A DNA stretch of 12,983 nucleotides from Octopus sinensis (Eukaryota). Shown here piece after piece: positions 1-12,983 of the stretch (position 1 is its first letter; every line of letters starts with the position of its first letter). The stretch lies in NCBI RefSeq assembly GCF_006345805.1, contig NW_021826436.1, positions 1 to 12,983 on the forward strand. Reading direction: 5' to 3'. A program made the translations under genes and the position numbers. The notes below the pieces were generated by a model. The model was not told the origin of the DNA and ran no database searches. It saw only the letters and a program-made list of their open reading frames with translations.

Positions 1-94
1 ATCTATATATCATATATACATACACCCCCACATCCACACACACACACACATATATACAGTAAATTTTTTTTATATATGAGTAGTTACAAATGGG

Positions 95-200
95 TTTAAA
101 ACTGATGAAAGTTGCTTTGGTGGAATTTTATTTATTTAATGCAATCAGGATAAATAACCGACCACTATCAAGTAAGACCTGAAACAAGTAAGGTTCTAGA
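95..200 (+). ncRNA. Type I hammerhead-ribozyme-like motif with long rod-like stem II (degenerate stem I)
   Basis: CTGATGA at 102-108. Stem II pairs TTGCTT(112-117)/AAGTAA(170-175), TGGTGG(118-123)/CCACTA(162-167) and TTATTTATTT/GGATAAATAA. Then GAAA(181-184)-CAAG-TA(189-190). Stem I pairs only partly (TTTAAAA 95-101 vs TTCTAGA 194-200, AGG unpaired), and the base of stem II is imperfect. Confidence 0.6.
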
Positions 201-242
201 CATCGTCTTGGAAATTACCAACATTAACTGGACAGTACATAC

Positions 243-254
243 ATATATATAAAC

Positions 255-320
<66 letters not shown>
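243..320. repeat. Compound (TA)n-(GA)n microsatellite
   Basis: Directly visible dinucleotide runs. Confidence 0.97.
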
Positions 321-324
<4 letters not shown>

Positions 325-444
325 TCTATTAACAATTCAATAATGAAAGATGTCATTCACACCATATAGAAAACATACTATAAAAACCTTATTCTAAAAA
401 TCAATAAAGTACAAAAACAATAATAGTAAATACTAGAAAAAAAC

Positions 445-555
445 GACTACGACGTTTTCGTGGCTATATTTTCAAATGATATCATAATAAACATTCGATT
501 TAAAATTAAATCGATCTAAAATTATTCTATTTAAAATACAGCCACTCGTCAGGTC
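445..555 (-). ncRNA. Type I hammerhead-ribozyme-like motif with extended stem II
   Basis: Minus strand reads GAC-CTGACGA-GTGGCTGTATTTT...AAAATATAGCCAC-GAAA(A)-CGTCG-TA-GTC. This gives a 13-bp stem II with one G-U, an inner hairpin TCGATTTAA/TTAAATCGA (495-514), a 3-bp stem I and one extra A in the GAAA. Confidence 0.7.
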
Positions 556-560
556 TAAAA

Positions 561-624
561 TAATATAATAATATAATAATAATAATAATATAATAATACT
601 AATAATAATAATAATACTAATAAT
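561..624. repeat. (TAA)n microsatellite
   Basis: Directly visible. Confidence 0.95.
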
Positions 625-637
625 ACAAATATAAACT

Positions 638-1035
638 AGTTGAGCATGTCCTTAGTGGCTGACGATATGTGCATCTCTGATCACGAGCAGAAGTAGTGGG
701 GGAGCATCATAGCCATGTGTTGAGAGGGATTGTTTGGGGTTTGAATAGTTCACCTCTGGAAACATGGGGGTTCTTTCAACATCCTTAAACAACCCTTGTT
801 CAGGGACCTTTGAGCGGGATGGGCTACTCAACCTGAAGGGCCCCACCTGCAAGGTCATGTGCTGTTTATCTTGATATGAAATCACCATGTCGCGCACATA
901 TGGTTGTGATGCATGTGCCTGGTGTACCTTTATCAGACGGGTAGTCATGATGGGTATATTGGGCTTCGTATATTTTACCCCAGTGTCACTTTGATGGCAT
1001 GAACTGCTCTCTCACTCAATAATAATAATAATAAT
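638..1035 (+). mobile_element. Unclassified interspersed repeat (SINE-like or LINE 3' end) ending in an (AAT)n tail
   Basis: About 380 bp of higher-GC, complex sequence between two (TAA)n tracts, ending ...CTCTCTCACTC-(AAT)n. It resembles an abundant octopus repeat as I recall it. No clear Pol III A/B boxes seen. Confidence 0.55.
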
Positions 1036-1239
1036 AGAATAAATGTACTTATCTTAACTTATACTAATTATCAAATGAATATAGTAAAATACGTATATTA
1101 ACGATAAATAATCGGAAAACATTTGACATAAAAACATAACGTATATAGTTGAAATTTATAGACAAAAAAAAAGACGAGGACAGGTTTAAGAACAACATAC
1201 AGGTGTATTAGTTTGACACAATCGGAAAAGCGAAAAAGT

Positions 1240-1275
1240 CTTTTACGTTTCTGGCCCACGCTCTTCAGCAGAATG
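1240..1275 (-). ncRNA. Degenerate minimal hammerhead-ribozyme-like motif
   Basis: Minus strand reads CATT-CTGCTGA-A-GAGC-GTGG-GCCA-GAAA-CG-TA-AAAG, with an alternative core register CTGAAGA at 1262-1268. GAAACGTA is the minimal palindromic stem III plus cleavage site. Stem II keeps only 2 pairs. Confidence 0.5.
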
Positions 1276-1337
1276 GAATTAGGAAAATATAGAGACAGAA
1301 TTTTTAAAAAAGCTAAGAATCTAGCAGTCTATAATGT

Positions 1338-1399
1338 AATATATATATAATATATATCTATAAATATTATATATAAATATATATATAGATATATATATA

Positions 1400-1433
<34 letters not shown>

Positions 1434-1487
1434 ACATATATATCTATATATATATATATATCGATATATATATATAATATATTATAT

Positions 1488-1520
<33 letters not shown>

Positions 1521-1600
1521 ATTAATAAATATATATATATATGTATATAATATATCTATATATACTTTTATATCTATATATATATATAATATATATATAT
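1338..1600. repeat. Long imperfect (TA)n microsatellite
   Basis: Directly visible. Confidence 0.97.
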
Positions 1601-1752
1601 CGTGGGACTCCGTCGGTTACGATGGCGAGGTGTTCCAGTTGATCTGATCAACGGAACAGCCTGCTCGTGAAATCAACGTGCAAGTGGCTGAGCATTCCAC
1701 TGACACATGTACCCTTAACGTAGTTCTCGGGGAGATTCAGCGTGCGACAGTG
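1601..1752 (+). mobile_element. Fragment of an interspersed repeat (probable SINE/retroposon internal part)
   Basis: GC-richer island (GGGACTCCGTCGGTTACG...GGGGAGATTCAGCGTG) between microsatellites. It resembles a common octopus repeat from memory only. Confidence 0.4.
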
Positions 1753-1765
1753 TCGACATTTACGT

Positions 1766-1786
1766 ATGAGTGTGTGTGTGTGTTTC

Positions 1787-1829
<43 letters not shown>

Positions 1830-1865
1830 ATGTGCGTGCGTGCGTATGTGCGTGTGTGTGTGTGT
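1766..1865. repeat. (GT)n microsatellite
   Basis: Directly visible; source of the VCVC/HTHT ORFs. Confidence 0.96.
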
Positions 1866-1878
1866 TTGCATATACGTT

Positions 1879-1934
1879 GCAGATTGACGGTTCACACCGT
1901 TTCGAGATGTATCGAGTACATGGTACCAATCTGC
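1879..1934 (-). ncRNA. Three-way-junction RNA with a hammerhead 3' half but a non-canonical 5' core
   Basis: Minus strand reads GCAGATT-GGTACC-ATGTA-CTCGA-TACAT-CTC-GAAA-CGGT-GTGA-ACCG-TC-AATCTGC. It has a perfect 7-bp closing stem, a 5-bp stem II, a 5-bp stem III capped by a GNRA loop and a GUC site. CUGANGA is absent. Confidence 0.5.
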
Positions 1935-2121
1935 TATAATAGAGAAATATTAGTTGGTGTCATTCTTGGTCACCCCGGGGCACATTCTATCCCCTTGTGC
2001 TGGGATATTCATAGTTCTTTAATGCTCGGCGTCGTGTAGGGAACTTTCCCCGTACGCTATCCCGCAGTAAATTAGGGTATTAACAAAACACATACATTAC
2101 GTATGTGCGACTAATGATGTT

Positions 2122-2122
<1 letters not shown>

Positions 2123-2173
<51 letters not shown>

Positions 2174-2204
2174 TTAAAAGACAGACAGACAGATTGACAG
2201 ACAG
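2123..2204. repeat. (GATA)n/(GACA)n tetranucleotide microsatellite
   Basis: Directly visible. Confidence 0.96.
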
Positions 2205-2304
2205 AGATATGTGTTTATATATAAAGATGTATGTTTGTATATGTATGCATATTCATGTGTTGTTTGTATGCATGTATATATGTATGTATGCATGTGAGTC
2301 TATA

Positions 2305-2478
2305 TGTGTGTGTCTTTGTATTTGCACTCGACAACCCCTCGCCCTTTCACAACCAACATTGGTTTGATTACGTCCCCGTGACTTAGCGGCCGGCAGAAGC
2401 GCCCCACCCGCAAAACCCTTCAAGGTGTTGACCCAGCATGGCCACACTCCAATGACACCAACAAGTAAAAGATTAAAA
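2305..2478 (+). mobile_element. Diverged 3' half of SINE family A (CORE-type, OR2-like)
   Basis: ACAACC...TTGGTTTGATTACGTCCCCGTGACTTAGCGG and CCAGCATGGCCACACTCCAATGAC...ACAAGTAAAAGA match the tails of the copies at 7450-7632 and 8288-8470. Confidence 0.75.
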
Positions 2479-2480
2479 AA

Positions 2481-2629
2481 CAAATATAGTATTGATCACT
2501 CAGATATATATTTTCAGTCAAATATATTCTCAAAATATATTTGAGAATATATTTGACTATATTCTTAAATATAGACTTCTCAAAAGTCTATTTGAGAAGA
2601 GGTCAAATATAGTTTTGACCTCTTCTCAG
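2481..2629. repeat. Cluster of overlapping perfect inverted repeats
   Basis: 19-bp arms 2516-2534/2540-2558; 15-bp arms 2593-2607/2614-2628; 8-bp arms 2571-2578/2584-2591; 9-bp arms 2576-2584/2591-2599. CAAATATAGT is directly repeated at 2481 and 2604. Confidence 0.93.
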
Positions 2630-3082
2630 CCCAACAATTAAACACGTGCTTTTGATTTTAAATGTGTACCATCGCTATCAGTATGTTTTTGTGAGCATAC
2701 ACACATGTCTATATCTCTTTAGACATATGTATATGCATGATCATGTGTTGGATTATTTCTGCGTCTGTCTGTGCATTCGACTTTATAACGAAGTGAAGCG
2801 AAGGTGTACAAGTTGTTTTCTTTCAGTTTTTTTTTCTGTATTACTCTTTTTTTTTCGCTTTGTTGATACAAGGAATGTTAATATTATTTTGCTATTCTAC
2901 ATGTTACTAAGTATTATTTCACTGCATTCTTGTCGTAATTGTTCGTATGTTAACATTTTTTTCAGTTTCCAATAGTTATCTGTAACTGTTTATATTTTCT
3001 GTTTGTGTATGTATTTGTCACTTTGTGTGTGTGTGTCTCTCTGTACTTTCGTCTGTGTGTAAGTACATTTGTGTATTTACCT

Positions 3083-3249
3083 TCTATCTTTTACGTTTTT
3101 CGGTCATTAAACTGCGGCCATGTTGGGGCACCGCCACGTAGAATTTTTAGTCGAAGGAATTGACCGAAGTACTTATTTCTTTTAAAGTCACGGGAACGCA
3201 AATACACCAACCGCTTGACAACCGGTGATAGGGGAAACAGACACAAATG

Positions 3250-3287
<38 letters not shown>

Positions 3288-3720
3288 AACAAACAAACAA
3301 ACACACATAATGAATAGGTTTCTTTCAATTTCTTATTTCTTTACTAACTACAAGGGGCTACACACAGAGGGGACAAACAAGGACAGACAAACGATTAAAT
3401 CGATTCCATCGACCCCAGTGCGTAACTGATGCTTATTTAATCGACCCCGAAAGGATGAAAGGCAAAGTTGACATCGGTGGAATTTGAACCCAGAACGTAA
3501 CGGCAGACGAAATATCGCTAAGCATTTCGCCCGGCCTGCTAGCGATTCTGCCAGCTCGCCGCCTTTTCTTTCAGTTTCTCCCGACCAAATCCCTTCACAA
3601 CGCTGGTCGGCCCGAGGCTATAGTAGGAAACACTTGCCCAAAGTGCCATGCAGTGAGACTGAACCAGGAACCATGTAGTTGAGAAGCAAATTTCTTGCCA
3701 CATAGTGAGACGTCTGCGTC
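3083..3720 (-). mobile_element. SINE family A (tRNA head + CORE-like domain + internal (GT)n + tail), split by a nested SINE
   Basis: The head at 3565-3720 contains a B-box-like GGTTCAGTCTC and a CORE-like GCACTTTGGGCAAGTG on the minus strand. The tail at 3083-3333 matches the other family A copies. Confidence 0.85.
3334..3564 (-). mobile_element. Full-length SINE family B (tRNA-derived) with 15-bp TSD
   Basis: Minus strand begins GGCGGCGAGCTGGCAGAATCG (A box), has the B box GGTTCAAATTCC and a central GCCTTTCATCCTTTCGGGGTCGAT, and ends AAAGAAATA. It is flanked by TTTCTTTCAATTTCT (3319-3333) and TTTCTTTCAGTTTCT (3565-3579). Confidence 0.92.
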
Positions 3721-3929
3721 TATTTATGTATTTTTGCTAAACATGTTTTACTATGGAGAGAAAAGCGTCAATGTGATTTTATGTAGTATCTTTAAAAGTT
3801 CATTATCTACAATCGCTAACACCGCGAAAAGTAAGGACGAGACAGAAAAAAGCTTTACTCTGGATATATAAATAAAAAGAAAAAGAAACTGAGTAGGTTT
3901 CCTAGCAGTTTAAAGCTTACTGCTACAAA

Positions 3930-4647
3930 CGAAGTGCGTTCAAAAAAAATCAGCCTCAACTAATTCCAAATGGTTTGGGGGTGACGCTATGCTTCCTGCG
4001 CATGCGTAAAAATCTTCGCGCCGGTAGACTGCGTCTGCTCCCGGCTATTACGCCTAGAGTACAGACGTGCGCACTCGACGGATTTTCGTTTTCACCGCAC
4101 GCATCGAGCAGAGACGTTGCATTAAGTTTTTTCCAAGAACTTGATGATAATCAAGATCAGATCAGTCTAGATATTCAGCAGGCCTTTGGTGATGATGCCA
4201 TGGATAAAACTCATATCATGGAGTGGTACAACCGTTTCAAACATGGCCACACCTCAGTGGAGAGCGAGGCGCTCTCAGAAGCCATCCGCAAGCCGAAACT
4301 AGGCAGGAGCCGATTGGAGAAGGATCGGCGAATATTCACGAAAGGCCTCCGTGTAGCAATCCAAGAAATTGCTCACAAAATGGGAATAAGCACAAGATCA
4401 ATGCATTGCATTTTAACGAAGGATTTGTGCATGCGGAGAGTATCGGCGAAATTGATCCGCAAGGTCCTGGCGGAGCAGCAGAAGTAATTCCGCATAGAAA
4501 TTGCTATGGACATGCTGGACTGTGCAAACCACGTCCCAGACTTGACGAAAACCATTACCTCTGGCGTGAAAACGAAAATCCGACGAGCGTGAACTACTCG
4601 TCTGTACTCTGGACCTAACAACCGGAAACTCCCGCAACCTATCGGCG
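3930..4647 (+). mobile_element. Internally deleted mariner (Tc1/mariner) DNA transposon with long inverted repeats
   Basis: Mariner-type left end CGAAGTGCGTTCAAAAA at 3930. Segment 4019-4095 is an imperfect inverted repeat of 4566-4647, with the transposase remnant in between. The outer part of the right repeat is missing where a SINE begins. Confidence 0.85.
4103..4565 (+). pseudogene. Mariner transposase N-terminal remnant (HTH DNA-binding domain)
   Basis: IEQRRCIKF (shifted frame), then IQQAFGDDAMDKTHIMEWYNRFKHGHTSVESE, EIAHKMGISTRSMHCILTKDLCMRRVSAKLIRKVL and EQQK*FRIEIAMDMLD...KTITSG. These match Mos1/Hsmar-type motifs up to the ITGDE motif. It has a frameshift and an in-frame stop and lacks the catalytic domain. 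Confidence 0.92.
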
Positions 4648-4654
4648 TTGGATA

Positions 4655-4816
4655 GAGTCGATTACATCAGTTTCCAGTGCTCAACTGGTACTTATTTTAT
4701 CGACCCCCCGAAAGGGTGAAAGGGGAAGTCCATCTCGGTGGAATCTGAACTCAGAATGGAAGAAATACGAACGAAATGCCGCTAAGCATTTTGTCCGACG
4801 TGCTAACGATTCTGCA
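4655..4816 (-). mobile_element. SINE family B, diverged and truncated copy
   Basis: AACTGGTACTTATTTTATCGACCCC..GAAAGG and GAACTCAGAA...CCGCTAAGCATTT...TGCTAACGATTCTGC align with 3400-3551. Confidence 0.88.
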
Positions 4817-4825
4817 GAAATTTAA

Positions 4826-4872
4826 AACAACAACAGCAGCAACAACAACAAGAATAATAATAATAATAATAA
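4826..4872. repeat. (CAA)n/(TAA)n microsatellite
   Basis: Directly visible. Confidence 0.9.
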
Positions 4873-5026
4873 CATTAAAGTAATTGTTCCAATTACATAC
4901 GTAATCTGTGTCGCAGACCGTCCCTTAAATGTTCCAGCTAAGGTAGGGGAATAATAAAAACACCGCTCCATGGAAATGGAAATGGAAATAGAGAGTTGCA
5001 AATACAGGGTATCATGGAAGGTGCCT

Positions 5027-5266
5027 TCTACCTTTTACTTGTTACAGTAATCAAATGGCGGCCAAATTGGGTCATCGGCTTGAAGCGTTTTCGTCCAACA
5101 GATTCATCCAGTACTTATTTCGTATACCTGGTACTAAATCTGTTGGTCATTTTTGTTGAACAGGTAAGTCACACTGACGAAAACAAATCAACACCGGTTG
5201 TCAACTGGTGGAAGACAAACACAGGCATAAAGAGACACATATAGACACACACACACACACACACAC
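5027..5266 (-). mobile_element. Old 3' half of SINE family A with its (CA)n tract
   Basis: TTTTACTTGTTACAGT..GCGGCCA and AACACCGGTTGTCAA followed by (CA)n, collinear with 8288-8490. Confidence 0.75.
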
Positions 5267-5391
5267 AGAGGCACACACCACTGCCCCATACTGAAATCAG
5301 ATGAACCAGTTAGTTCTACTTTTTAAACTCAAATATAATTCTAATCGAAGAATAGCTTCCTAGCGTGGGCAATGATATCCATATTATTGTA

Positions 5392-5720
5392 ATTACATCC
5401 GCCTTCGCTTAGGCGGAGGTATTGTTTTCAGTCGTGTTTGTTTGTCTGTGAACAAAATGTCTCAAGAACCGCTGGAGGGATTCGAAATGAAACTTTCAGG
5501 GATGTTTGGCCTCGTGACTGGCATGAACTGTGGGATCGATCCGGTACCGGACAAGGATTCTGGATTATTTTTCCGTTTTTTTTTACTTAATTTCTGAGAG
5601 CGATCGGGTTCATTTCTAGTATTCTCATTTGCGAGAGCAGTCGAGTTTATTTCAGATATTCTCATTTTAAAAACCATCTCTGGCTAATCGTTAAGAGGAC
5701 GTTGGTGTTGCCTTGGCAGA
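5392..5720 (+). mobile_element. Non-autonomous Helentron-associated element (HINE / DINE-1-like)
   Basis: 5' hairpin ACATCCGCCT/AGGCGGAGGT, then a GTTT/GTCT microsatellite seed and the core AACCGCTGGAGGGATTCGAAATGAAACTTTCAGG. It ends in CCTTGGCAGA, which looks like a truncated 3' sub-terminal repeat. This order matches HINE architecture. Confidence 0.72.
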
Positions 5721-6499
5721 AAATGAGACATTTGCACGTGACTCAATATCCTGGAACATCATGTTCATAGCCAACCATATAACAACGGTACAAGAAAGTG
5801 TAGTCTATGTTTAACTGATACAATTCATATCGTAAAACTTCCCACGAAAATATGAGCAGGAGGCCATCACTTGAGACCATTCCTTTCGGACAACTTCTCT
5901 TTGACCGAAGTACCAATGGAACTTGCACATAGATATCGGTCCACAAATCATAAACGTTACAGGTTATCTACCTTTGACACTCGATTGCCAAATCTTTCTT
6001 TTCTCTATACCATAGTAGCTGAAACCAACAATAGCAACATTACCTAAAAGACAACAATGCAGCCCACAATCTCAGTGTTCTAAACCAATTAGAATTGGCT
6101 AAACCTACGACCCAGTGATGTATCATTTTCAGTCTATTAAAAGAAGTCATGTAAATTTACACACGAATTATTTCTATTCTTTAGCCGTTTCTAATTTGTG
6201 TCGCTAACGAATCTAATATGCAAGTGAGTAAAATCGATGCCCCTTACCCAAAGCATTTGTATAAGAAGCTTTAGGCTGCTTTCTTTCTTTATAAAACGAA
6301 CGAAATAGACACTCGTGATAAGCCGACGATAAACAGACGAAAGTAGTCGAGGTTTTACTTCAGTCCATTCTACAGAGAGACAGGCTTTTTGCTTAACAGC
6401 AAGGTCTGTCCAAACAGCGTGGCCAAACGCATGCTTATTAAACGTACGTACGTTAACGTATTTACAATTTATCCTAGCACACGCTGTCTCAATACGTTA

Positions 6500-6802
6500 G
6501 CTCTCTCTCTCTCTCTCTCACACATATGTATATATTTATAAGTATTTGAAAGCATATATATACATATATATATATATTTGTACATATATATATTCATACA
6601 TACATATGTACATACATATGTACATCCATATGTACACACATATGTATACATACATAAATACATACCTTACATATATATATAAATACATACCTTACATACA
6701 TACATATACATACATACATACATACATACATACATACATACATACATACATACATGCATACATGCATACATACATACGTACGTATGGATGTATGTATATG
6801 TA
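6500..6802. repeat. (CT)n followed by (TA)/(TACA)n low-complexity tract
   Basis: Directly visible. Confidence 0.93.
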
Positions 6803-7151
6803 TAAACCTAATAATATTTAGGTTAAACTACAGAGGGCGAAGATTATATATCTCCACTTACATAAATATACGTGCTGTGTGAGTGTTTCATTACACACAC
6901 ACACACACACACACGGATGCACGTACACACACACGTTTCTATTAGTATGCATGATTAACAAGAGCGTTCTAGGACCGACGCTCAATCACAGCAGGGACGC
7001 TCTCTGAACCTCGTTCCATTAACTCCGTTAAACACCAGAATTCGGTTTATATCTCCCGCATTCTTAATTTATGTATATATATATTTGTTGTTGTTGTTCT
7101 TGTTGCTGCTGCTGCTGTTGTTTAACCCTACCGAGCACACCTGTGAGCAAA

Positions 7152-7306
7152 AGGCTGTGTCATTTATGGGCTCGCTTTGCAACCACGTGATATGCAGTTC
7201 GGTTCCACTGTGCGGCACTTTGGATAAATGATTTCTACCTTGGTCCCGGGCCGACCAATGCCTTGTGAGTGAATTTGGTAGATGGAAATTATGTGAAAGC
7301 CTGTCG

Positions 7307-7385
<79 letters not shown>

Positions 7386-7632
7386 TGAGTGTGTATACAT
7401 GTATGTGTGTGTATACATGTGTATGTGTGTGTGAGTATTTCTTTCCACTGCTGGACAACCGGTGCTGGTTTGTTTACATCCCTGTGACTTAGAAGAAGTT
7501 CGGTGAAAGAAACTAGTAGGATAAGAACTAAACTTTAAACTAAGTCCTGGGGTTGATTTGTTCGACAAAGATCTGTCAAGGTGGTGCTCCAGCATGGCCT
7601 CTGTCCAATGACTAAAACAAGTAGATAAAGAA
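7152..7632 (+). mobile_element. SINE family A, near full-length diverged copy with long internal (GT)n (7308-7382)
   Basis: Head CAACCACGTG..GTTCGGTTCCACTG..GGCACTTTGG; GGGCCGACCAATGCCTTGTGAGTGAATTTGGTAGATGGAAA; tail GGTGCTCCAGCATGGCC...AATGACTAAAACAAGTA. Confidence 0.88.
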
Positions 7633-7802
7633 GACATTACGTTTATGTAGGATTTTCATTATCTACGGTGCCATTCCATTTATGAAATGGTTTTTAGGAT
7701 CGGATTTATGGACGGTTTTACTGCTATTTTTACCGAGTCAAACCATCATGCACATGTTCCTTCTTAGCTTACTCACAAAAAATTGTTGATGCTGATGTTA
7801 TC

Positions 7803-7997
7803 GTCGTTATAGCCCTAGGTCAGCCGTTATTGAATAAAACTGTGAGGCAAGATTTTTCCAGCAATGTCTATTCCCGGATCATAAAGGCGAATGTGACATT
7901 GCATTGTTGCATACATATACTACTGTAAGATGTGATTAGAAGGTTACCTAGCTGCCTTTTCTGGTAGATTGAGCTAATGCTTCGAGGCACCATCGTT
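7803..7997 (+). mobile_element. Ancient unclassified repeat (family C), copy 1
   Basis: TAGCCCTAGGTC...TTTTCCAGC and GTGATTAGAAGG..TAGCTGC...GAGGCACCATCGTT are collinear with 12421-12590 and 12707-12777. Confidence 0.55.
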
Positions 7998-8287
7998 AAC
8001 TCACTAACATATTCTTTCTGTTACTAAAAATCTTACAAATTTTTTTGCTAATGGTGAAACAGGTTTCACCCACGCCGAATCTTTACTGTTCCCTGATGCA
8101 ACGCTTCTTAAATGGTGCCTCGCAAGATGTGCCGCATGTACCACAGATATTTAAGATTATAATTTAAGGTTTTAGAAAAATACAAACTAATGCTTAGGCA
8201 TCTTGAAAACCGTGTTATTTGAAAGTTTCTTACGCACTGGTATACTTAATAAGCCGAGGTAAGCAACAGCTAGCAAGTCTTTTTAAT

Positions 8288-8704
8288 TTTTTTACTTATT
8301 TCAGTCATTTGACTGCGGCCATGCCGCAGCACCGCCTTTTAGCCGTACAAAATTGACCCCGGGACTTATTCACTGTAAGCCTAGTACTTATTCTATCGGT
8401 CTCTTTTACCGAACCGCAAGTTACGGGACGTAAACACACCAACATCTGCTGTCAAGCGATGTTGACACACAAACATACACACACACAGATATATATACAA
8501 ATACATACACGCACATACGTGTATATATATATGTATATATACGACGGGCTTCTTTCAGTTTCCGTCTACCAAATCCTGTCACAAGGATGTGGTCGGCTCG
8601 AGACTATAGTAGAAGACACTTGCGCAAGGTGTCACTCAGTGGTACTCAACCCAGAATCATGTGGTTGGGAAGCGAGCTTCTTACCAGACAGCCACTCCTG
8701 TGCT
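8288..8704 (-). mobile_element. SINE family A, full-length copy (tRNA-derived CORE-type, OR2-like)
   Basis: Minus strand has the A box TGGCTGTCTGG, B box GGTTGAGTACC, CORE-like ACCTTGCGCAAGTG, an internal (TA)/(GT) tract and the tail GCATGGCCGCAGTCAAATGACTGAAATAAGTAAAA. Confidence 0.92.
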
Positions 8705-8970
8705 TCATAAATTTTAAATTTGAAGTTATTTTTTAACTTTCTATAAGCAATGCAAAAATAATGTTTTTCAGTTTTCCATGCAAAGTACCCGAGTAAGGTT
8801 TTATTCAATCCTTTCGTTGCCTTATTCCAGCTGAAACACCTTGCATTGGTTTCAATTGCGTCATTAGTGTTTTTGATTTTCAATCTGACTGTTTTAAAAT
8901 CATCTTTATAACAAATTTACATCCAAATTTTACGATGTTATGTTCCTCACACAAAATTAATAAAAATGAA

Positions 8971-9201
8971 GATATAATCGACTTAATTCGTTTGTCTGTC
9001 CTTGTTTGTGCTCTCTGTGTTTAGCTTCTTGTGGGTAGTAAAGAAATAGATATTTCGTCTGTCTTTACGTTCTCAGTTCAAATTCCGCCGAGATCGACTT
9101 TGCCAGTCATTTTATCGGGGTTGCGTACTGGGGTCGATCTAATCCACTGCCCCCTCCCCTCCATAATTTCGTGTCTTGTGCCAAGAGGAGAAAGTAATAT
9201 T
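8971..9201 (+). mobile_element. Tandem SINE family B fragments: tail type 1 (8971-9048) fused to a 5'-truncated unit with tail type 2 (9049-9201)
   Basis: 8971-9048 matches the tail of 3334-3564. 9049-9201 carries the B box GTTCAAATTCC and a tail matching 12803-12870. Confidence 0.87.
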
Positions 9202-9253
9202 CCAAAGTAGTGCAAAGACTAACGCATCACCAGGTCCAAGAATCACACATCTG

Positions 9254-9340
9254 AGTATGTATGTGCATATGTGTGTATGCATATATATATGCGTGTGTGT
9301 ATGCATGTGTGTATGTATATATGTATTATATATATTATAT
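9254..9340. repeat. (TATG)/(GT)/(TA) low-complexity tract
   Basis: Directly visible. Confidence 0.85.
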
Positions 9341-9599
9341 GATATTATCTGCTGAATAAAAAGCAATCAGTGTTTTCTTTTCATTAAAAAATTATTATTT
9401 CAATAAAATTTTTGGTTTTGTTAAACGAAGTTAAGACAAGAAAAACTTCTTGAGAAACCAAATAGTCTTTCCTTCCTTAATGCCAACTTTGAAGAAAATA
9501 TCTCTTTTGTATCTTACTTTTTTGGTCTCTTTTTTTGCGCAAACTGCACGTGCATTTTTATCGCGTACGCGTAGTATCGATCGCAACAGCTGATGTACT

Positions 9600-9801
9600 T
9601 GCGCGTACAAATGCACTTTCCCATGGCTTTATCGATCGTATTCTCATCTGGAATCGATTTTTGTAATTTTTTCAAGACTTATACACGCCCTGATACTGTC
9701 GGTATCTACATATCAAATTTGAGCGCAATCGGATGGAAGATGCCCGAGATCCTAGAAGACACACACAGACAGACAGAACAGAACGGATTTTATATAATAG
9801 A
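9600..9801 (-). mobile_element. 5' portion of a non-autonomous Helitron-like element
   Basis: Minus strand starts A|TCTATTATATAAAA (Helitron 5' TC terminus), followed by CTGT repeats and the core CATCCGATTGCGCTCAAATTTG. No 3' hairpin-CTAG was found, so the left boundary is uncertain. Confidence 0.62.
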
Positions 9802-9948
9802 TATGATATATTACTATAAGATATATGCAAATATATTTTCGATCTTTGGTATACATATGTATATCACTTCTTTACCAAATTACATATGCAAAGAGGAAAA
9901 ATAGATAGAAACGATAGTATAATTCACATACACACATATACACACAAA

Positions 9949-10023
<75 letters not shown>
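9949..10023. repeat. Compound (TA)n-(GA)n microsatellite
   Basis: Directly visible. Confidence 0.96.
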
Positions 10024-10026
<3 letters not shown>

Positions 10027-10219
10027 TGAGATCCTGAGGGACCTACGCAAAGTGGATGTAGGTGTTTTCAAATTAAAACTGGATCTCTCCTGTCGAGAGT
10101 CTCAAATGAACCTATCTAGCGGCAAGAGGTGCAAATGAGGGTAGTAGCATCAAACTCCCTCACTCACCTAATGCCACATATCAGAGGAGGCTCTCAATAA
10201 CAACAGTGTAGCAAAATAA

Positions 10220-10255
10220 TGGTGCCCCAGCATGGCCGCAGCTCTGATCTGAAAC
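10220..10255 (+). mobile_element. Isolated SINE 3'-terminal fragment
   Basis: GGTGCCCCAGCATGGCCGCAG...CTGAAAC matches the terminal motif of the family A tails. Confidence 0.6.
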
Positions 10256-10258
10256 TAC

Positions 10259-10306
<48 letters not shown>

Positions 10307-10467
10307 ATACGTATGCGCATATATACAATTTTATATATATATATATATAAGAGCGTTGTAGTTGGGTTGCAGCTTTGTAGTACAGAAGCAGAATGATAAA
10401 TGAAATAACAAATAAGAAAAACTAATAATAATGCAGAAAAAGCCCAATTTTTTGCGCCTGAAACACA

Positions 10468-10469
<2 letters not shown>

Positions 10470-10500
<31 letters not shown>
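10470..10500. repeat. Poly(T)31 homopolymer
   Basis: Directly visible. Confidence 0.95.
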
Positions 10501-10502
<2 letters not shown>

Positions 10503-10574
10503 ATTGTTAGAAGACTTCGTCGTTTCTCATTTCATACAGATACAGATACATACATACATACATGTATGTATAAC

Positions 10575-10608
10575 TAAATATATATATACAACATATATAT
10601 ATATTACC

Positions 10609-10691
<83 letters not shown>

Positions 10692-10720
10692 TATATATAT
10701 ACATACATATACATACTATA
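10575..10720. repeat. Imperfect (TA)n microsatellite
   Basis: Directly visible. Confidence 0.95.
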
Positions 10721-10735
10721 TAAACTTAGATAAAC

Positions 10736-10777
10736 TTAGATATGTTTCGACCAAAGATTGGTCCAGGCCATGTCTAA
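10736..10777 (-). ncRNA. Minimal hammerhead-like scaffold with non-canonical 5' core
   Basis: Minus strand reads TTAGA-CATGGCCTG-GACCAA-TCT-TTGGTC-GAAA-CA-TA-TCTAA. It has a 5-bp stem I, a 6-bp stem II closed by G-C and GAAA-CA-TA. CUGANGA is replaced by CAUGGCCUG. Confidence 0.5.
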
Positions 10778-10788
10778 CTTAATAGCAC

Positions 10789-10797
10789 CACCTGATG

Positions 10798-10860
<63 letters not shown>

Positions 10861-10990
10861 TATATATATATACTTTACTGGGTAAAGCACGGTTACTTTC
10901 ACCTCTGGATGCTCCAGAACCTGTTGTTGAGTGTCCCACCCAAAAGGAATCGATGCTAGATGTGTCGAAATAATTGTCGTGTTTAATAAA
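10789..10990 (+). ncRNA. Hammerhead-like motif with (TA)n and a long insert in stem II, followed by AATAAA
   Basis: CAC-CTGATGA (10789-10798) ... ATGTGTC-GAAA(10967-10970)-TAATTG-TC-GTG(10979-10981), with AATAAA at 10985-10990. The stem II register is imperfect: GATATAT/ATGTGTC pairing would borrow the core GA. Confidence 0.5.
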
Positions 10991-11249
10991 TTCTCGTATA
11001 TTCCATCTTCTGTCTTTCATATATATATATATATATATATATAGCAATAACAAAATGGAGGGGATCAATAGGTGGTTCGTTAACTTTTAGACATTATATT
11101 ATATTAACTTATTTATTTATTTACTAAACTGATAATTACAATAATATACATACATATAACATATTATGCTTTACATACAAGATATAAAATATATTGATAT
11201 ATAAGATACCAGTAATTATTACAAAATAACATACATGAATAAATTGAGA

Positions 11250-11350
<101 letters not shown>

Positions 11351-11487
11351 CGGAGATGTACTTGCATAGCGAGTGACTTGATCTGAGATCGTGTGCTGGA
11401 ACGAAAATAATTGCAGCGTGGAAGGTGTTTATAAGCCATTAAAGAAACACACAAAAGCCGTTGATTCACTTCAACATTTAAATTTAA

Positions 11488-11538
11488 TTTGTCAAAATAT
11501 TTTCGTCGCTTTCAGACCGCGACCTGTTCACTGACAAA
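11488..11538 (-). ncRNA. Minimal type I hammerhead variant with G3-C8 core swap
   Basis: Minus strand reads TTTGTCA-GTGAACA-G-GTCGC-GGTCTGAAA-GCGAC-GAAA-ATAT-TT-TGACAAA. It has a perfect 7-bp stem I, a 5-bp stem II, a palindromic ATAT stem III, and the core GUGAACA in place of CUGAAGA. Confidence 0.72.
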
Positions 11539-11805
11539 ATTCCGAGCTGCATCTCTTCCGTGCTGTGTGTATATATATATATATTGTTATACAATAACAG
11601 ACGAAGTCTGTTTAAACGGTAATGTCTGTATATTACTGATTATTTATATAATTAATTAACTATATTATTAATTCATAAAAAGGTCGTTTTTATTATCACA
11701 CTAATAATAACCACAAAAGAGGTGAATGTCTTGATTCCGGGGATAAGTATTCACTTTTAACTAACATTAAAAGACTTGGTATTAAAATTCTGGGTTTCAC
11801 TCCCC

Positions 11806-11807
11806 CC

Positions 11808-11851
<44 letters not shown>

Positions 11852-11858
11852 TCTCTCT
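11806..11858. repeat. (CT)n microsatellite
   Basis: Directly visible. Confidence 0.96.
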
Positions 11859-12041
11859 ACAAACAGCCAAAGTCTGTGGCTATTTTAAAATTATTTACAC
11901 ATTTTGATCAGTGCAAATAATATATTTTTTTCTGAGGAAAGTGGAAAATTTTCCTTAGATAATAAATGTTTGGTTAATATTATAAAACCGAAATTTTAAA
12001 TACTACTCCTTCTAAAACTACAATAACCACTATTACTACAA

Positions 12042-12062
12042 TTGATGATAATGATAATAATA

Positions 12063-12106
<44 letters not shown>

Positions 12107-12122
12107 AATGATAATAATAATA

Positions 12123-12207
<85 letters not shown>

Positions 12208-12260
12208 TAATAATAATGATGATGATTATGATAATAATAATTATAATAATAAAAATAATA

Positions 12261-12295
<35 letters not shown>

Positions 12296-12299
12296 AATG

Positions 12300-12354
<55 letters not shown>

Positions 12355-12363
12355 TAATAATAA
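12042..12363. repeat. Compound (ATG)n/(ATA)n trinucleotide microsatellite
   Basis: Directly visible; source of the poly-M/I and poly-H/Y ORFs. Confidence 0.97.
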
Positions 12364-12420
12364 ATGTATGGAGAACATCGATTGTTGAGATTGCTTATCA
12401 AGTTGTTGCTATCGTAATTG

Positions 12421-12590
12421 TAGTTTAGCCCTTGGTCTAGCAAACAGGCAGATCTATAGCAATGGTTTTCCAGCCATGGCCATCCTGTAATATCTGAAGT
12501 ATATTTCGTTCTCCCAAAGCACTTTTTGTACGATTTGAGTACAATTTAGCTGCTATTACCAACAGGTCAGGTGAGCACAGCGGGTTTCTT
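12421..12590 (+). mobile_element. Ancient unclassified repeat (family C), copy 2
   Basis: GTTTAGCCCTTGGTC...TTTTCCAGCCATGGCCATCC...GATTTGAG..TTTAGCTGCTATT; similar to 7803-7997. Confidence 0.55.
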
Positions 12591-12706
12591 TCTATTATTA
12601 TTGTTGTTGTTGCTATGAATTCGTGTATATGTATCTCAAAAACTACATTATTTAATGTGTTGCTTCAGCTAAAAAAATATTAAAAATTTTTTTTTAAAAC
12701 AGTAGG

Positions 12707-12777
12707 TTGTGATTTGAGGAAAAGTTGGCTACAATATCTAGCAAATCCAGTTGCCACATAGAGGCATCATCATCGTT
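12707..12777 (+). mobile_element. Family C 3' fragment, copy 3
   Basis: GTGATTTGAGG..TTGGCTAC..TCTAGCA...AGAGGCATCATCATCGTT; similar to 7931-7997 and 12533-12590. Confidence 0.5.
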
Positions 12778-12802
12778 GCCGTATGTCTGTAATCCTCAAG
12801 TT

Positions 12803-12983
12803 ATAATCTTTTCTACTCTAGGCACAAGGCTCGAAATTTTGGGGGAGGGGGCCAGTCGATTAGATCGACCCCAGTACGCAACTGGTAATTAATTTACCGA
12901 CCCAGAAAGGATGAAAGGTAAAGTCGGCCTCGGCGGAATTTGAACTCAGAACGTAAAGACAAACGAAATACTGATAAGCATTT
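12803..12983 (-). mobile_element. SINE family B with tail type 2 (runs off the window end)
   Basis: ATCGACCCCAGTACGCAACTGG..GAAAGGATGAAAGGTAAAGTCGGCCTCGGCGGAATTTGAACTCAGAACG matches 3407-3530; the tail is TTTTCTACTCTAGGCACAAGG. Confidence 0.92.

Follow-up and report, generated by a model that had tools for sequence, protein, structure and literature searches.

When every part of a hammerhead ribozyme except its 5′ core can be read in a piece of genomic DNA, is the piece a new kind of structure or the remains of an old one? The question is raised by a 56-base motif on the minus strand (1934-1879) of a 12,983-nucleotide stretch of Octopus sinensis DNA (contig NW_021826436.1, positions 1 to 12,983), the whole of which is referred to here as the window. 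The first-pass annotation had described helices of 7-8, 5 and 5 bp, a GUGA tetraloop, GAAA and GUC, with GGUACC at the place of the 5′ core; the letters are as first described and confirm all of these, and the cut that it had placed between 1886 and 1885 in the hammerhead frame agrees with the position of the GUC triplet. The motif, its parts and its surroundings are listed in Table 1.

Table 1. Parts of the motif and of the repeat fragment around it, in window coordinates (descending numbers follow the minus strand)
Feature	Position	Strand	Remarks
(GT)n microsatellite	1770..1865		Adjoins the 3′ end of the motif
Putatively hammerhead-derived motif	1879..1934	minus	Predicted to fold into four arms with 8, 4, 4 and 5 Watson-Crick pairs; A1901 unpaired where they meet
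Stem I / P1, 5′ strand (GCAGAUU)	1934-1928	minus	Pairs with 1885-1879; pair probability 0.98-1.0
GGUACC at the 5′ core position	1927-1922	minus	Predicted paired: G1927 with C1886, GUAC with 1919-1916
Hammerhead stem II frame (AUGUA / CUCGA loop / UACAU)	1921-1917 / 1911-1907	minus	Predicted unformed in this copy, probability ≤0.004
CUC; GAAA; CUC-GAAAC	1906-1904; 1903-1900; 1906-1899	minus	Intact 3′ half of the core
Stem III / P4	1900-1896 with 1891-1887	minus	5 bp; GNRA loop GUGA at 1895-1892
GUC triplet	1888-1886	minus	Read from the sequence
Stem I / P1, 3′ strand (AAUCUGC)	1885-1879	minus	7 bp; possible 8th pair G1927-C1886
Linker part of the repeat	1935..1999	minus	Loose ends of relatives ~60-70% alike down to ~1992, by eye
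Best-conserved part of a dispersed, diverged, apparently non-coding repeat	2000..2112		Dozens of copies, mostly <90% alike
(GATA)n microsatellite	2122..2173		Other end of the repeat fragment

Measured against a type I hammerhead, the 3′ half of the core is complete, with GAAA, an A1900-U1887 pair in the place of A15.1-U16.1 and GUC as the NUH triplet, and three helices of 7, 5 and 5 Watson-Crick pairs could form around the core. GGUACC stands where CUGANGA belongs, between stems I and II, at an edit distance of 5. Because the defining core is missing, the motif is built like a hammerhead and is not a member of that class. Only the minus strand shows a correct C before GAAA, the GAAAC/GUC arrangement, a stem III that opens with A-U and C-G pairs, and a GNRA loop. 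The letters are not an assembly error: an identical 149-letter contig over 1866-2014 was found in sequencing run X4, and all 22 sampled words were present in three sequencing runs (two of them possibly the source of this DNA). Rfam searches of the whole window and of 1600-2500 returned only microsatellite-driven or sub-threshold matches, with no ribozyme and no hammerhead family at E up to 5 or 10, which is a weak test because the canonical-core hammerhead-like motifs of the same window were missed too. ARAGORN reported no tRNA, and HDV-like, twister, twister-sister, pistol, hairpin-ribozyme and tRNA-like readings were rejected by eye, as none fitted the consensus features.

The minimum-energy RNA fold of the motif is a near-perfect four-way junction (−20.0 kcal/mol, 63% of the ensemble), in which GUAC 1926-1923 pairs with GUAC 1919-1916 and UCGA 1915-1912 with UCGA 1905-1902, the other two arms being the 8-bp P1 and stem III. 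The would-be cleavage base C1886 is paired with G1927 in this predicted fold. The three-way fold reached −16.4 kcal/mol with the junction closed and −13.1 kcal/mol with C17 free, so that a three-way junction with an unpaired cleavage base is not favoured (probabilities 0.002 and 9e-6, respectively, versus 0.63 for the four-way fold), and the probability of stem II was ≤0.004 at 15 to 37 °C. The description of a clean three-way junction with unpaired GGUACC and CUC thus does not hold for the predicted structure, where both GGUACC and CUC-GA are paired; since the four-way fold is favoured, GGUACC is predicted to be a helix arm and not an exposed core, and a non-catalytic recognition structure of the kind suggested in the first-pass annotation would be four-way, not three-way. 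The 56-mer folds better than its shuffles both as RNA (z = −3.7) and as DNA (z = −5.2; overall range −3.4 to −5.2), and both strands fold alike, also as DNA.

Two results favour hammerhead ancestry at the level of predicted folding. When GGUACC was replaced in silico by a canonical 10-base core, a textbook type I hammerhead fold was predicted, in which the 8-bp stem II reached a probability of 1.00 and the competing UCGA hairpin one of 0.00; a bare 7-base core gave stem II a probability of only 0.48. When any 6-mer was placed at the core position, the UCGA hairpin appeared in 55% of the 4,096 sequences, among which GGUACC ranked 382nd by energy; half of the four-way junction therefore comes free once the core is lost, and only the GUAC arm needs explaining. 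Together with the canonical 3′ half, the core swap supports the ancestry that had been proposed for the motif.

How often would such a frame arise without any hammerhead behind it? A descriptor of the hammerhead frame lacking the 5′ core, composed after the motif had been seen, matched this site alone in the window, and in shuffled sequence it matched 18 of 20,760 strands with Watson-Crick pairs only (18 per 10,380 windows) and 424 with G-U pairs allowed; within this one window, the frame thus exceeds what chance would give. At that rate, hundreds of frames fitting this loose descriptor would be expected in a scan of ~250,000 windows, a number in keeping with a motif that was never a hammerhead, namely the cloverleaf or cruciform end of a DNA-level or rolling-circle repeat whose GAAA and GUC are a coincidence picked out of a large scan. 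The similar folding of the two strands without a G-U pair (z = −5.2 and −4.5 as single-stranded DNA, with 0 of 200 shuffles as good) is also what such a repeat end would give. On the other hand, the descriptor left free the base before GAAA (here C), the second pair of stem III (here C-G) and the kind of loop (here GNRA), and these unrequested features together would make a chance origin some hundreds of times less likely by our own estimate, which is not a computed value. Since the hammerhead features are correct on one strand only, they point to RNA, and a search of 1590-2500 gave no terminal inverted repeat to match the motif. We regard the cloverleaf origin as improbable.

Among 200,000 shuffles of the 26-base middle of the motif, 0.12% had a 5-bp stem with the GAA end, and 0.04% had two 4-bp hairpins that tile the stretch, so neither the hammerhead nor the four-way reading of this stretch can be dismissed, and the greater rarity of the tiling hairpins counts against a mere remnant. 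It also counts against a remnant that all 21 pairs of the four-way fold are Watson-Crick, although relatives of the repeat differ by 10-20%. That short inverted repeats merely came together by chance in unique or decayed sequence, and neither have nor had a function, is very improbable in our view: the lack of any Rfam match there up to E = 10, of any homologue in the prokaryotic and viral collections and of any copy at 80% in run X6 would agree with it, but the folding z of −3.4 to −5.2, the shuffle test and the clean result of the core swap speak against it.

The motif forms the end of a diverged dispersed repeat that lies between two microsatellites. Contigs of four of 15 sequencing runs (four of the six holders) were aligned to 1866-2116 at 80% likeness, and the repeat proved to be dispersed and multi-copy, with 56 contigs in run X1 and 55 in run X6, nearly all on 2000-2112 (<90% alike: 50 of 56 and 42 of 55, respectively). 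Over the motif itself at 80%, there was no contig in X6, one further span in X1 and the identical contig, at depth 2, in X4; the last carries another organism label, comes from the same study as X1 and is not counted as conservation between species. The alignment tool drops contigs that resemble human DNA, so that copies of the motif beside microsatellites may be hidden, and it did not show the window's own copy in X1; the absence of motif copies is therefore weak evidence. As far as it goes, the lack of conservation at 80% among relatives agrees with a relic. At 2014, twelve contigs part from the alignment and continue for ~240 letters without a second match, so that any motif in them is missing or has diverged by more than 20%; judged by eye, the loose ends of these contigs resemble the window by 60-70% over 20 letters. 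In a run guessed to be RNA, one contig spans 1960-2116 (depth 3) without reaching the motif, which is no evidence either way.

The further X1 span lies at 1891-1925 as placed from depth bins (13.9 / 62.6 / 41.7), its letters not being seen, and is <99% alike. It covers UACC, i.e. four of the six odd core letters, where a canonical copy is not expected to match, and this suggests a second copy without a canonical core in X1, which counts against the relic reading. As a chance match, 0.14-1.8 such spans would be expected at 80-83% identity and <0.01 at ≥86%. No paralogue with a canonical core was seen among the aligned contigs, which is likewise unfavourable to a relic. As to whether GGUACC is fixed across paralogues, this partial check suggests that the motif sequence is not fixed across the family; one X1 contig may share the odd core, and no canonical sibling was seen at 80%.

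The repeat gave no sign of coding capacity. Six-frame translation of 1866-2116 had no Pfam match, including none to a reverse transcriptase or GIY-YIG domain, in a fragment of ~240 bases that may be untranslated, and the translated repeat had no protein homologues; four matches in a representative search were rejected as sums of 4-7 bit stretches in tandem-repeat proteins. No second copy or tandem unit of the motif or the repeat occurs in the window. The additional hairpins that had been pointed out near 1960-2060 are present, whereas the predicted folding of 1950-2070 as a whole does not stand out from that of shuffled sequence (z = −0.9 and −1.4). A small GGGA/UCCC hairpin at 2040-2052, in which relatives vary at the loop and the adjacent pair, is a hint of structure that we did not count. 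We also observed a 17-nt inverted repeat (88%) between 1948-1964 in the repeat fragment and 2451-2467 in the tail of a neighbouring SINE-like repeat, which may be due to chance.

We consider it somewhat probable that the motif is what is left of a type I hammerhead, now catalytically dead, that it ends an old and truncated copy of a dispersed repeat of probably Penelope-like origin, and that its predicted four-way fold would be unable to cut. The ancestor would have had a canonical core and an 8-bp stem II, whose 3′ strand we infer to be CUC-GAAAC, and its transcript would have been cut after GUC. One short replacement event may then have exchanged ~10 core bases for six, likely as a repair patch copied from the GUAC palindrome that lies nearby, at a distance of seven bases. 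Templated insertions are generally known, and the repair-patch step builds on them. A replacement of the core would leave the helices untouched, and its templated origin would make the GUAC/GUAC arm; this arm would free UCGA to pair with the UCGA of the core, upon which G1927 would pair with the C of the cleavage site. The copy would now be without function, and one duplication may have followed. That intact helices with a foreign core speak against decay is a weak argument under this scheme, since a single short replacement could remove the core and spare the helices. Counting against a Penelope-like relic, the repeat could be linked to Penelope elements neither by a reverse-transcriptase frame nor by flanking direct repeats or a named family. 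If the motif is such a relic, it matters little beyond showing that one short replacement can kill a hammerhead while its helices stay perfect, and it calls for caution in scans that take intact stems as a sign of selection.

A tentative alternative, which we regard as unlikely, is that the four-way junction became fixed in a subfamily as a stable, non-cutting structure that marks the 3′ end of the RNA for the reverse transcriptase of the element or protects it from decay. It would explain all letters of GGUACC but one, leaving 21 Watson-Crick pairs and a single unpaired junction base (tiling probability 0.0004), and the second contig appears to share the sequence from UACC through the stem III loop; but that contig ends before both strands of P1, no covariation was seen, and the motif is far less conserved than 2000-2112, the reverse of what would be expected for a recognition signal. 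In the accessible part of PMC8557442, Naiad elements are described as spreading without canonical hammerheads, and eight of them, including cephalopod ones, are annotated 'HHR_half_core'; however, the published half-cores keep the first half of the core, opposite to this motif, and the motifs of the present repeat were unmatched in those consensus sequences. More doubtful still is the fuller version, in which a hammerhead of a Penelope-like subfamily is now a fixed non-cutting four-way junction that retains the former stems I and III, has a palindromic arm in place of the catalytic strand to lock the cleavage base, and acts as a 3′-end signal for reverse transcription. Were the fixed junction real, a natural ribozyme fold would have been reused as a recognition element, with a bearing on what hammerheads do for these elements, a role described as unclear in the part of PMC8557442 considered here. 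Fixation across copies would further mean that a Penelope-like lineage needs the structure and not the cut, and the pair of forms would make that role testable.

It is extremely unlikely that the motif is an active ribozyme, either with a new GGUACC core chemistry or as one half of a ribozyme that a canonical sibling RNA, or dimerisation through its palindromes, would complete in trans. The 3′ half core and the GUC triplet are intact, as such an activity would need, but there is no counterpart of C3, G5, A6, G8 and A9, and the known core variants are small, the disruptive ones being slow or inactive according to the available portion of PMC3088659. Penelope hammerheads have been proposed to act as dimers via palindromes (PMC4209133, in the section available), and a homodimer of the motif is predicted to lie 5.2 kcal/mol below two monomers; this predicted dimer, however, only swaps the P1 strands, and GGUACC and C1886 stay paired. 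A search of viral contigs for a GGUACC-core class gave 70 loci with 56 distinct sequences, in which three stems were found in 0 of 56, while the positive control showed three stems in five of 43 distinct sequences (seven of 52 loci). The five control sequences are natural phage hammerheads with the same CUC-GAAAC closing and a stem II of 5-9 bp, which favours hammerhead ancestry of the motif. With all 5′ core bases gone, the cleavage C predicted to be paired, no CUGANGA with ≤1 mismatch on the minus strand in 1500-2500 and no family of GGUACC-core stems in viral contigs, neither of the earlier suggestions, a new ribozyme variant or completion in trans, finds support.

Homologues of the motif were not recovered from other collections. 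Pattern scans of viral contigs gave two matches without hammerhead stems by eye in one case and none in another, a pattern scan of prokaryote genomes gave two matches, again without stems by eye, and blastn against phages had no match. In 19 of 64 parts of a metagenome contig collection at least 119 loci matched, and among the matches listed none had an upstream GGTACC or a likeness to the window. Such a structure was not found in print; the octopus repeat library (PMC13282606, Zenodo) or the supplements of PMC4209133 or the bioRxiv study cited below may contain the family. Penelope-like families do occur in octopus according to the accessible text of PMC13282606, and the portion of its supplement that was available contained no match to the repeat.

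Regarding known systems, the closest likeness is to the type I hammerheads of Penelope-like elements (Cervera and De la Pena 2014, PMC4209133), which, in the sections available, are located in flanking repeats and occur mostly as scattered, single and highly variable motifs, probably from truncated copies. The motif shares with them the type I order of stems, a long stem II frame that ends in C just ahead of GAAA, C-G as the second pair in stem III, GUC and its occurrence as a scattered single copy in an animal genome beside similar motifs. Unlike them, it lacks CUGANGA, is predicted to fold into a four-way junction with the cleavage base paired, and is shown with no element frame or flanking repeat; its stable 5-bp stem III with a GNRA loop is closer to the fungal and protist motifs than to the minimal animal ones of the same source.

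The Naiad 'HHR_core' and 'HHR_half_core' ends (Craig et al. 2021, PMC8557442) resemble the motif in having an incomplete core near the 3′ end, in microsatellite insertion and in the presence of cephalopod remnants; as far as the accessible part of that paper goes, canonical hammerheads are missing from Naiads, half cores occur in some of them and the cephalopod copies are old remnants. They differ in keeping the CUGANGA half, whereas the motif keeps the GAAA half, and in preferring (TA)n. A short-motif search of the Naiad consensus ends, in the available part of the supplement, gave no match, where line breaks may hide motifs, and the cephalopod ends differ by eye. As for non-LTR retrozymes (PMC7229834; bioRxiv 10.64898/2026.07.22.740005, both in the portions available), a type I hammerhead frame within a non-coding repeat that measures a few hundred bases, in an animal genome, is common to both, whereas the motif is not tandem, has no working core and has a long stem III; in place of tandem monomers with a complete hammerhead there is a single copy whose core is missing. 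Natural hammerhead core variants (Perreault et al. 2011, PMC3088659) likewise have an altered 5′ core within intact stems. In the part of that paper considered here they comprise single changes, one- or two-base insertions and an exchange of C3-G8 for U3-A8, i.e. changes of one or two bases, while five edits separate GGUACC of the motif from CUGANGA.

Microsatellites and dispersed repeats abound in the window, which is A+T-rich animal DNA, and its minus strand carries three more hammerhead-like motifs in differing states of decay (552-457, 1268-1248 and 11533-11503, described below with slightly longer stretches). Hammerhead-like remnants are thus common in this window, in support of the reading of the motif as a dead remnant.

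At 552-445, a CUGACGA core and a GAAA at ~460-457 are separated by an A+T-rich stem II hairpin of ~85 nt (z = −4.7 as DNA), and stems I and III look decayed. A minimal motif at 1268-1235 has a CUGAAGA core, a short stem II and GAAAC, with a weak predicted fold. At 11533-11490, a decayed motif with an altered 5′ core, a 5-bp stem II, GAAA and a stem I of 6-7 bp is a second case of a damaged core in intact stems. Elsewhere in the window, nested perfect hairpins at 2500-2628 have arms of 19 and 15 nt at 100% and loops of 5-6 nt, and are built on a degenerate unit of 12-18 bp. A mariner-type remnant at 3975-4647 includes a Mos1-type HTH (Pfam HTH_48, PF17906, E 3e-5) and degenerate inverted ends (4019-4095 and 4566-4647, 73%), and SINE-like dispersed repeats, 73-88% alike, are located at 3334-3700, 4656-4815, 7197-7491, 8550-8686, 8976-9193 and 12810-12983.
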